This document shows, one piece after another, positions 24,902 through 27,037 of a stretch of DNA of 64,000 nt. The notes under the pieces were generated by a model, which was not told the origin of the DNA, did no database searches, and worked only from the letters and a program-made list of their open reading frames with translations. A program made the position numbers and the translations under genes. The stretch spans positions 416,001 to 480,000 of the forward strand of contig CAVRUH010000001.1 of the NCBI GenBank assembly GCA_963724325.1, in the 5' to 3' direction. The DNA comes from Waddliaceae bacterium (lineage in GTDB: Bacteria; Chlamydiota; Chlamydiia; Chlamydiales; Waddliaceae). Each line of letters opens with the position of its first letter. Positions within the stretch are counted from its first letter, which is position 1.

Positions 24902-24991
24902 AAGTTAGCTAAGTTGGAAATTTAATGCGACAAATGAATAACATCTTGCGGAATCTCCAAAATAACAGGATATGCAAGATCGCAAGCGGCA

Positions 24992-26817
24992 CCCCATCAA
25001 TACTCAATTGGCAAAATTTGTTTTGAGAAAATGTTTGATAGAAGTACAATCGGTAAATATTCTTCTCGAAACAAGGCTCAGAACATTGTCAAAATGCATC
25101 AAAGTCCAAAAAATTGTACTCGAATATCACCCTCAGAGGAATCAAAGAGCAAAATTAATCAAGGGCTTAGCGATATTGCTCAACAGCACAATATCAATTC
25201 GGTCATCCATCAATCAGGAGCTCCATCATGAAGAAAGCCGCAATATATGCCAGAGTCTCCTCACAGAAGCAAAAAGAAGATGAAACGATCGAAAGTCAAG
25301 AATTGGTTCTTCGAGAATTTGGACTCAAAGAAGGATATCAAATTCCAGAAACGTGGCTTTTTCTTGATAACGGTATAAGTGGTCAAAGTCTTCAAAGACC
25401 TGCTTTAGATGATTTACGAGATTTGATACGAACAGAGTCTGTCGACGCGATTTTGATCTATGCACCAGATAGGTTAGCCAGAAATTATCCTCATCAACTT
25501 ATTTTGTTAGATGAATTTCGACGATGTGGAGTGAAGGTTCTTTTCATTAGAAATGTTCCTCAAGGTGACACTCCTGAAGCAATAATGTTTACTCATTTTC
25601 AGGGGATTTTTGCTGAATATGAAAGAGCATTAATATTAGATCGATCTCGTCGAGGTACTATTCATAAAGCAAAAAGCGGAGATCCAGCTATTCTTCCTAA
25701 GCTACCATATGGCTATCAGAGGATAAAAAATGAACGTCAAACGGTGATTGAAATCGTTGAAACAGACGCGAATGTTGTAAGAAAAATATTTTATTTATAT
25801 GTTCATGAGAGGCTTTCATTAAATGGAATTTGTCGAAGGTTGAGCGAGGTCCAAATTAAAAGCCCAAAAGGAAATTCCTATTGGTTTCCAGCAACCATCT
25901 TAGGGATATTAAAAAATAAGGCTTATATAGGCACTGCAGCCTATGGTAAATCAGAAAAGTATGAGGGTATAGATAAAATAAGGCATTATAAAGGCTTAAG
26001 ACGGCTGAAGCCAAAAAATCCACGAAAAAAAACTAATGAAGACTCTTGGTACGAGATAAATATTCCAATTATAATTAGTGAAAGTGATTTTGAAACAGCA
26101 CAGGAATATATAAATAAAAATAAAGAATTAGCCTTAAGAAATACCAAAGAACCTTCCTTGCTTCAAGGATTAATCACGTGCGGCGAATGTGGTTGTCAAT
26201 TTTATAAAAGAATGAGAAGATATAAGGGAATAAGTAAAAATTATTATCATTGTCGAAGCCATTCGGATAATAAAATACCAAAATGTTCTAATGGATATAT
26301 ACAGCAGGATGAGCTCGATGATTTGGTCTATAATGAAATAATTCAAATGCTTCAAAATCCATTTATGTTGCAGGAAGAGTTTAAAAGAAGAGAAAAGGAA
26401 AGCGGAAATATCGAGGAAATCGAGAGGCAGGAAATTTCGATGAGAAAAGAATTAGAAAAGCTTATAAAAGAACGAGAGCGACTTTTAGATGCATATCAAA
26501 GTGGTTTATTAGATTTAACTTCTCTAAGTCAAAGAGCCCAGGGGTTAGAAAAAAGAAGAGGCGAACTTGAGAACGAGAAAAAGGAACGATTAAATTTAAA
26601 ACTTATGAAAGAAATAGGATCCGGTTGGGAGCATGCTTTTGAAAGTATTTTAGAAAGAGTTAAAAAATCGGCTCCAGATTTGCCATTCAATGAGAAGCAA
26701 AAACTAGTGCGTTTAATAGTTGAAAAAATTATCATAACCAAAGGCGAGGTAAAAATCATGCATTGCATATCACCGAAAATGCTTTATGAAAATTGCCAAT
26801 TGAGTAGTGATGGGGCA
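24992..26817 (+). mobile_element. Minimal serine-integrase mobile element (1826 bp) inserted in a REP-like repeat
   Basis: 23-bp terminal inverted repeats ccccatcaatactcaattggcaa (24992-25014) / ttgccaattgagtagtgatgggg (26793-26815), 22/23 match. CA at both junctions. Rejoined flanks equal the intact repeat at 26973-27037. Confidence 0.92.
25031..25231 (+). CDS. Small ORF upstream of the integrase (possible accessory protein, or the integrase C-terminal extension in the circular form)
   Basis: 66 aa. Stop overlaps the integrase start (ATGA). In frame with the integrase across the reconstructed attP. Confidence 0.45.
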   Translation: MFDRSTIGKYSSRNKAQNIVKMHQSPKNCTRISPSEESKSKINQGLSDIAQQHNINSVIHQSGAPS

Positions 26818-26829
26818 GGATACGAATGA
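25228..26829 (+). CDS. Large serine recombinase (integrase)
   Basis: YARVSS catalytic motif, DNGISG, RPAL, DRLAR, PYGY recombinase domain, Zn ribbon (CGECG...C...C), coiled coil, AGGAG RBS. Confidence 0.95.
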   Translation: MKKAAIYARVSSQKQKEDETIESQELVLREFGLKEGYQIPETWLFLDNGISGQSLQRPALDDLRDLIRTESVDAILIYAPDRLARNYPHQLILLDEFRRCGVKVLFIRNVPQGDTPEAIMFTHFQGIFAEYERALILDRSRRGTIHKAKSGDPAILPKLPYGYQRIKNERQTVIEIVETDANVVRKIFYLYVHERLSLNGICRRLSEVQIKSPKGNSYWFPATILGILKNKAYIGTAAYGKSEKYEGIDKIRHYKGLRRLKPKNPRKKTNEDSWYEINIPIIISESDFETAQEYINKNKELALRNTKEPSLLQGLITCGECGCQFYKRMRRYKGISKNYYHCRSHSDNKIPKCSNGYIQQDELDDLVYNEIIQMLQNPFMLQEEFKRREKESGNIEEIERQEISMRKELEKLIKERERLLDAYQSGLLDLTSLSQRAQGLEKRRGELENEKKERLNLKLMKEIGSGWEHAFESILERVKKSAPDLPFNEKQKLVRLIVEKIIITKGEVKIMHCISPKMLYENCQLSSDGAGYE

Positions 26830-26887
26830 TACATGTAACTTCTTACCCTGCTTTATAATAAAAAGTAATTGATATTATCTTCCTATA

Positions 26888-26930
26888 ATCCTTCATATCC
26901 TGCCGCTTGCGATCCTTCATATCCTGTTTT
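26888..26930 (-). repeat. REP-like dispersed repeat, inverted copy
   Basis: Reverse complement aaaacaggatatgaaggatcgcaagcggcaggatatgaaggat, same family as the integrase target. Confidence 0.85.
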
Positions 26931-26972
26931 CCTTTTACAGGGAGGTTAACAAGGTATCAATCTCTTGTTATT

Positions 26973-27037
26973 TCTCCAAAATAACAGGATATGCAAGATC
27001 GCAAGCGGCAGGATACGAATGATACATGTAACTTCTT
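26973..27037 (+). repeat. REP-like dispersed repeat, intact (empty attB-equivalent) copy
   Basis: 65 bp identical to 24954-24991 joined to 26818-26844. Confidence 0.9.

Follow-up and report, generated by a model that had tools for sequence, protein, structure and literature searches.

To our knowledge, standard overviews present IS607 as the only kind of insertion sequence moved by a serine recombinase, and credit large serine recombinases only with the movement of phages, islands and a few transposons of clostridia. IS1397 and ISKpn1 are insertion sequences that target repeats. Here we describe a 1,826-bp element, of the size of an insertion sequence (IS), which encodes a large serine recombinase (LSR) and sits in a dispersed repeat of a Waddliaceae bacterium. 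It lies in a stretch of 64,000 nucleotides (the window), which corresponds to C1:416001-480000 of a 2.37-Mb, 11-contig assembly that is 84.6% complete. According to the part of PMC5704250 available to us, Tn4451/Tn4453 (TnpX) and Tn5397 (TndX) resemble this element in the use of an LSR as transposase, a 2-bp core common to both junctions and recombinase-driven excision; on the excision of Tn4451-type elements as a circular molecule, that part holds only the title of a cited paper (Bannam 1995). It describes Tn4451-type elements as several kb long, with cargo (catP, mob), a GA core and numerous sites, whereas the element in the window has 1.8 kb, no cargo, a CA core and one position of one repeat as its single target sequence, and is thus not of the Tn4451/TnpX type. 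In the full-text literature, we found no description of an IS-sized LSR element, or of LSR elements in repeats or in intron reverse-transcriptase genes, the tables of ISfinder and of Durrant et al. not having been compared by sequence. The accessible part of Durrant et al. (2022) does not mention such elements, and that of PMC4853749, on serine recombinases, covers xisF only.

The locus is composed of the following features, read in the window from left to right:

24964..24989 (+): B arm of attL (left arm of the target repeat), comprising nt 1-26 of its 41-bp core; all seven copies of the element have this sequence on their left
24990..24991 (+): CA core dinucleotide of the left junction, presumed crossover point; CA at both junctions in 7/7 copies
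24992..25014 (+): P' arm (left terminal inverted repeat), matching the reverse complement of the right end at 22/23 positions
25023..25050 (+): promoter-like site TTGAGA-16-TACAAT, with 10/12 consensus positions (consensus match only)
25086..25283 (+): ORF-S, a conserved small open reading frame (ORF) of 65 aa from TTG, its frame open from 24972; identified by a shared motif, codon-position bias and profile matches
25228..26829 (+): LSR gene, 533 aa, identified by Pfam domains and alignment; its stop codon (26827-26829) is provided by the flanking repeat, beyond the end of the element
26793..26815 (+): P arm (right terminal inverted repeat), within the recombinase coding sequence (codes ...CQLSSDG), by direct reading and alignment
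26816..26817 (+): CA core dinucleotide of the right junction; CA at both junctions in 7/7 copies
26818..26830 (+): B' arm of attR (right arm of the target repeat), by direct reading and comparison of copies

An earlier note on this DNA had described an integrase element between two CA dinucleotides, with 23-bp inverted ends, whose removal restores an empty 65-bp copy of a repeat. Direct reading bore this out. The two CA bound 1,824 bp, so that the unit comprises 1,826 bp including one CA, and 24992-25014 is the reverse complement of 26793-26815 at 22 of 23 positions. When the flanks (24954-24991 and 26818-26844) were joined by script, 65 of 65 nucleotides were identical to 26973-27037, and the identity broke off immediately at both borders. 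As expected of a serine integrase, both junctions carry an identical 2-bp core, and the empty copy has a single CA at that place.

The whole genome contains seven copies of the element. Five of them are identical, the other two have the same three substitutions, and the recombinase frame is intact in all seven. CA flanks both sides of every copy, and every copy is inserted at one and the same CA within the 41-bp repeat, in a single orientation, with the first 26 nt of the repeat and CA on the left and CA and the rest of the repeat on the right. The genome-wide check proposed in the earlier note, whether insertion is always at this CA, was thus positive for 7/7 copies, and none of the seven lies at an unrelated sequence. 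Beyond the 41-bp repeat, the sequences around the copies, which occupy two contigs, are unrelated; only the 1,826-bp unit is common to the copies, not whole repeat doublets. The end sequence was found exactly 14 times in the genome at ≤4 mismatches, which is twice for each copy, so there are no solo ends and no miniature derivatives. Three copies lie inside 5.7 kb of a repeat cluster (C1:24026-29732); two of these, the copies with the common substitutions, are arranged tail to tail across 70 bp, each occupying one of the two units of a convergent repeat pair. The structure of the element, its copy number and the identical insertion point and orientation are direct observations, as are the intact conserved LSR, the coding signature of ORF-S and the family context described below. 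The unit has the marks of an insertion sequence: a length below ~2.5 kb, mobility genes only (LSR and ORF-S), terminal inverted repeats and several copies.

We consider it very probable that this is an autonomous, IS-sized integrative element with two overlapping genes (the 65-aa ORF-S and the 533-aa LSR) between 23-bp inverted ends, which inserts in the repeat by attP x attB recombination. The observation in the earlier note is confirmed, and the finding of a mobile element driven by its LSR, the mobility of which we infer, is supported by the sequence. Five identical copies with all ORFs intact argue for recent spread. The element is not strictly minimal, as the earlier note had called it, since a second conserved gene, ORF-S, stands beside the LSR.

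The target repeat was surveyed in the whole genome with its 41-bp core at ≤8 mismatches. This gave 191 matches, namely 188 unoccupied copies and three left halves of occupied sites. The copies that the earlier note had reported in the window were recovered, with cores at 26888-26928 (-), 26983-27023 (+) and 45640-45680 (-):

26888..26928 (-): unoccupied inverted repeat copy (C1:442888-442928), 1 mismatch to the core
26973..27037 (+): unoccupied repeat copy with its core at 26983-27023, 65/65 identical to the joined flanks of the element, from repeat search and script comparison
45640..45680 (-): unoccupied repeat copy (C1:461640-461680), 4 mismatches to the core

A neighbour within 200 bp was present for 159/188 unoccupied repeats. 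Inverted pairs predominate (48 of the -/+ and 46 of the +/- arrangement, with favoured spacings of 12 and 57 bp) over same-strand neighbours (18). One doublet, folded as single-stranded DNA, forms one long hairpin of -40.4 kcal/mol; a single unit has no hairpin (-1.0). The hexamer centred on CA is GGCAGG in 138 of the 188 unoccupied repeats; GGCATG and GGCAAG are among its natural variants. A match of the doublet to a plant miRNA model in Rfam was rejected as a spurious, below-threshold hairpin. The repeat also occurs in regular tandem arrays of doublets resembling clusters of bacterial interspersed mosaic elements (BIMEs), for example, with a period of ~164 bp (C1:992402-992926, C1:1095242-1096102, C7:11053-11970 and C5:110859-111613). 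The proposal that the element uses a multicopy repeat as attB was thus supported, all seven insertions being at the same CA of this repeat in one orientation, with 188 copies unoccupied.

The earlier note had also called the repeat similar to repetitive extragenic palindromic (REP) sequences. In favour of this, the repeat is present in >100 short copies (188) arranged in hairpin-forming inverted pairs, as are REP/REPIN sequences. The second mark of such systems, a single-copy gene for a REP-associated tyrosine transposase (RAYT) with the repeat on its flanks, was not found: the one RAYT-like gene of the genome scored 79.3 bits with NF047646, against a cut-off of 80, and the 18-nt repeat core (≤3 mismatches) is absent from the 3.3-kb locus around it. 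Thus, the repeat looks REPIN/BIME-type, and "REP-like" describes a resemblance only. The RAYT-like Y1 transposase gene (L108:1327-1869, - strand, where L108 is C5:205978-209274) adjoins a different repeat array (L108:1918-3281) with a period of ~112 bp. The repeat is not confined to the host of the element. At least 78 repeat matches (from 40 of 130 candidates scored) were found in a same-genus genome (G001, 97% complete) in which a recombinase match is absent, so the repeat is independent of the element. The repeat was not found in three other genera of the family. The gene flanking the locus is only 68% identical in the same-genus genome, which is too distant for an intergenic comparison of the orthologous empty site.

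The recombinase has the domains Resolvase (PF00239, residues 4-152, E 5.5e-32), Recombinase (PF07508, residues 179-297, E 1.3e-17) and Zn_ribbon_recom (PF13408, residues 311-371, E 2.8e-13). In an alignment of 22 family members, S11 of the YARVSS motif is nearly invariant, and C318, C321, C342 and C353 are invariant. Among solved structures, the SPbeta integrase SprA (9dxh, E 8e-19) matches best, aligning nearly end to end with residues 48-504; residues 280-509 align with the C-terminal domain of the A118 integrase (4kis). The best NCBIfam matches were XisF (118.9 bits) and CcrB (102.8 bits), with cut-offs of 375 and 900, so the protein is a member of none of those subfamilies. By these comparisons, it is a typical LSR claimed by no curated NCBIfam subfamily.

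The recombinase gene runs through the right inverted repeat, and the element contains no stop codon for it. The stop codon belongs to the target repeat, and the seven copies therefore encode proteins of 533-550 aa with different tails. When the ends were joined in silico, the recombinase frame continued for 76 codons to a TGA overlapping the ATG, giving 609 codons on a 1,826-bp circle. In relatives, the frame reads on past the junction for 63 codons (L028), ~73 codons (L029, core uncertain) and 21-31 codons (seven elements that target introns, see below). Among the 25 loci with an inverted-repeat score ≥20, the first stop lies beyond the right repeat in 21; the remaining four are the window and L029, in which the repeats were mis-called and the stop is outside by direct reading, and L060 and L098, with early stops. 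In this set of sequences, a recombinase stop outside the element is a trait of the family.

ORF-S begins in the 236-bp leader, shifted to the +1 frame with respect to the recombinase start, and shares its last part with 18 codons at the beginning of the recombinase gene. The core motif of ORF-S (in the window, LEYHPQRNQRAKLIKGLAILL) aligns with YSFDRLxxxKLSQVYRLLVPE of distant relatives. A loose pattern for this motif matched 29/41 loci from both clades of the family, always 103-130 nt upstream of the recombinase start. In a coding test of 12 pairs of relatives, confined to the part upstream of the recombinase start, the differences on codon positions 1/2/3 numbered 166/119/245, and 113/354 changed codons were synonymous, versus 47/364 and 47/367 in the other two frames. 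In a database search with a profile built from 27 ORF-S sequences, 220 of 725 candidate proteins had E ≤ 0.01; the best 120 matches listed are 61-96 aa long, mostly lie on short contigs and, where named, are called "hypothetical protein". Judged by these alignments, ORF-S is conserved and evolves as a coding sequence. Its conservation in both clades and the purifying selection on it imply that it does something for the element, and its size, position and conservation make it a candidate directionality or regulatory factor. The ORF-S frame is open leftward into the target repeat, to an ATG at 24972, and is open from that position in 4/7 copies; a longer product of 103 aa from an integrated copy is possible. 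The promoter-like site TTGAGA-16-TACAAT could drive both ORF-S and the recombinase gene, although such sites number 10 in the region, no more than in shuffled sequence (8.1 ± 3.0). The other frame of the leader holds a 66-aa ORF (25031-25231), which was rejected as a gene: no homologue was found, and inspection of the alignment by eye showed no bias towards the third codon position. Within the element, no match to Rfam attained the gathering score of its family.

The fixed non-palindromic 2-bp core, the near-palindromic joined ends and the complete LSR fit attP x attB integration. The element would excise as a circle, whose joined ends would form a nearly perfect palindrome around CA (attP). 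LSR dimers would bind attP and one 41-bp repeat unit (attB), cut both at CA with a 2-nt stagger, and rotate and religate the strands in conservative site-specific recombination; the single orientation would result from the non-palindromic nature of CA. Excision would be the reverse reaction (attL x attR), with ORF-S as the likeliest helper or controller. Because the ~190 repeat copies are mostly intergenic hairpin-forming pairs, they would provide many harmless landing sites and permit copies to build up. Copy number might rise by excision behind a replication fork followed by reinsertion at one of the ~190 sites, or by repeated entry. The circle, strand exchange at CA, control of directionality and current activity are what we infer from these features.

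The recombinase gave 2,434 database matches at E ≤ 1e-3 among the 8,000 scored. The top 120 matches listed (40-100% identical) mostly lie on short contigs (1.7-2.6 kb), as collapsed repeats would, and the closest relatives among the matches listed are 80-90% identical. A scan of metagenome contigs with the single recombinase protein returned one locus (44% identity), and a scan of one genome per species returned 79 loci in metagenome-assembled genomes (MAGs) and isolates of many phyla. Several relatives are multicopy, namely those in a chlamydial MAG (7 loci), Hanamia (6 loci) and Chitinophaga sp. CF418 (4 loci). Elements of the family are 1.8-2.3 kb long and have related terminal inverted repeats of 23-28 bp. 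In 48/80 loci, the recombinase gene is flanked by the halves of a group II intron reverse transcriptase, which abut the element ends in the loci read directly; in L081, for example, the flanks correspond to positions 2-186 and 184-352 of TIGR04416. The reverse transcriptase is split between GTPQGG(V)(I) and SPLL, and insertions occur in both orientations. The dinucleotide common to both junctions of the intron-targeting elements that were read is AT in five, GC in one and GT in one, and is mismatched (GC/AT) in one. Near-identical elements from Actinomycetes MAGs differ in this respect, with AT in L041, GC in L042, and GC on the left and AT on the right in L040. Such variation is unexpected for a serine recombinase, an enzyme that needs matching cores; mismatch-tolerant exchange resolved by replication could produce it. 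In L058, L064, L076 and L098, the N-terminal half of the reverse transcriptase stands on both sides, inverted, which is unexplained by simple insertion or by homologous inversion between copies.

The 2.2-kb intron-targeting relatives carry a third gene, for a helix-turn-helix (HTH)/ribbon-helix-helix (RHH) protein, in 30/34 loci by motif; RHH_1 was above its cut-off in 3/5 tested. The gene (for example, L052:2522-2857 and L079:2525-2866) lies upstream of ORF-S and encodes ~110 aa with an HTH-like N-terminus and a CopG-type RHH C-terminus; the clade of the window is devoid of it. Reverse-transcriptase flanks are absent from all loci with a recombinase ≥45% identical to that of the window, and L028 and the copies in the chlamydial MAG lie in long palindromic repeats. 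In a relative from this MAG (L030, 49% identical), the flanks fit TG in most copies and TC at the right junction in 1/7. A quick maximum-likelihood tree (46 sequences) united the window with L028, L029, L034 and L035 in one clade (SH-aLRT 98) among the intron-flanked elements; the root, placed with two very long outgroup branches, is uncertain. The genome itself has two intact group II reverse-transcriptase genes, neither of which has been entered by the element. We read these sequences as the record of a family that parasitises introns, one lineage of which gave up the RHH gene and adopted repeats as its target.

How the direction of the reaction is set allows several explanations. The LSR alone might perform both insertion and excision, as TnpX of Tn4451 does, leaving ORF-S as a regulator or irrelevant to directionality. 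The accessible part of PMC5704250 reports that the Tn4451 recombinase integrates and excises without a directionality factor, with exchange at 2-bp identical sequences, and the element has little room for further genes; this explanation is possible, but we regard it as doubtful, since ORF-S is conserved in both clades under purifying selection and the LSR is far from TnpX, with chain 2mhc matching only residues 4-90 (E 9e-4). Alternatively, directionality may be set by the C-terminus of the recombinase, the integrated form of 533-550 aa favouring excision and the circle form of 609 aa favouring integration. Consistent with such a switch are the stop outside the element in 21/25 loci, the read-on of the circle ORF in relatives and the varying tails of the seven copies. 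Nevertheless, the extension varies in length (21 to 76 codons), conservation of the att-arm DNA can account for the similarity of the residues that follow the junction, and a frame that leaves the element may simply follow from an att arm inside the gene, all of which makes it unlikely. A broader proposal can be entertained only tentatively: the element would belong to an undescribed large LSR family that lives only in other multicopy selfish DNA (intron reverse-transcriptase genes in most phyla and, in this clade, a palindromic repeat) and senses its own state. Target DNA would close the recombinase gene in the integrated state, and the leader of the element would do so in the circle; two isoforms together with ORF-S would choose between excision and insertion without a classical directionality factor.

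Movement by something other than the LSR appears far less plausible. The genome has a RAYT-like gene and DDE transposases (one in the window at 28671-30185), either of which could act in trans, in which case CA would be a 2-bp target duplication and the LSR a passenger. We regard this as extremely improbable: across phyla, the LSR keeps related inverted ends and its own coding sequence through the right end, the copies share the 1,826-bp unit rather than whole doublets, and the RAYT-like gene has no target repeat in its surrounding 3.3-kb locus. The seven copies could also have arisen by segmental duplication or recombination between repeats, the element being an immobile fossil. The three copies in the 5.7-kb cluster, and the lack of a circle or polymorphism in four low-depth metagenome contig sets, would agree with that; however, it is very unlikely given the unrelated flanks past the 41-bp repeat on two contigs and the five identical copies with every ORF intact.

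Several observations weigh against LSR-driven integration from a circle. Neither the circle junction (right end to left end) nor an excision allele was seen in the four low-depth metagenome contig sets, in which no contig spans the stretch. The sole joint that skips the 1,826 bp (set X4) extends over 24 nt at its shorter side, and would equally arise from any empty repeat. A contig set (X5) does bridge the left junction at the locus, which shows presence only. Conservative cut-and-paste alone does not explain seven copies, and their number and arrangement depend on a metagenome-type assembly (11 contigs, 84.6% complete). By direct reading, attB has little dyad symmetry and little likeness to attP, which is unusual for serine integrases. 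No recognisable directionality factor was found, ORF-S matching no Pfam or PHROG family, and the AlphaFold model of ORF-S is one long helix of middling confidence (pLDDT 68.7).

The nearest named homologues of the recombinase are in Chlamydiales MAGs. The genome encodes five TLC nucleotide transporters, four of them strong matches, a family present in 0/14 control genomes. The host is probably an environmental bacterium of the chlamydia-like kind. In 40 relatives of the order, the best recombinase match is 26% identical, and a match at E ≤ 1e-60 occurs in 3/301 sampled genomes of the phylum, including the source genome; the distribution is patchy. Around the element, an AAA_14/DUF4143 ATPase gene (26991-28328, +) begins inside the empty repeat copy and is adjoined by a DDE_Tnp_1 transposase gene (28671-30188, -); mobile DNA is plentiful in this patch. 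On the other side, a gene at 20787-24134 (-) encodes a penicillin-binding protein of 1,114 aa with PBP_dimer (60-292) and transpeptidase (837-1053) domains and ~540 residues between them without a Pfam match.

An IS-sized, multicopy and strictly site-specific LSR element would fill a gap between integrases and transposases, and suggests a way for a conservative recombinase to multiply, through a target that is itself multicopy and harmless. The apparent switch of target, from a motif in an intron gene to a non-coding repeat, offers natural material on changes in LSR specificity. In addition, a compact LSR with attP, attB, attL and attR readable in the window and 188 natural attB variants may be useful for the mapping of site recognition and for integrase tools. 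Such elements also affect the assembly and annotation of the genomes that carry them, the relatives lying mostly on short contigs. The element will mainly interest specialists in mobile DNA and integrases.

Compared with known systems, the LSR shares its domain architecture, and the element its short attP and attB with a 2-bp core, with the serine integrases of phages and islands (SPbeta SprA, A118, phiC31 and Bxb1; XisF; CcrB). Those integrases move large genomes or islands into a single-copy site and have a separate directionality factor, whereas the element has the size of an IS, is present in several copies and has a repeat of ~190 copies as its attB. The intron-targeting LSR elements are closer to it, with a homologous LSR (33-42% identity), related inverted repeats, a recombinase ORF that leaves the right end and ORF-S upstream. 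They differ in their length of ~2.2 kb, third gene, insertion in either orientation into reverse-transcriptase coding DNA and mostly AT dinucleotide; the element in the window has no third gene and uses a non-coding repeat, CA and one orientation. IS607 is likewise IS-sized and moved by a serine recombinase. The part of PMC4058570 at hand describes a DNA-binding domain before the catalytic domain and minimal target specificity for IS607; in contrast, the catalytic domain of the LSR is N-terminal, and the IS607 model NF033518 gave it 37.2 bits against a cut-off of 110, so it is not of the IS607 type. Finally, insertion into a dispersed intergenic repeat is shared with IS110/IS1111, for which the available part of PMC11187229 describes specific target selection; the text of that paper also refers to repetitive extragenic palindromic sequences. 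However, repeat-targeting insertion sequences use DEDD or DDE transposases, and IS110 a guide RNA, whereas in the element a serine integrase, acting as protein only, presumably reads the site.

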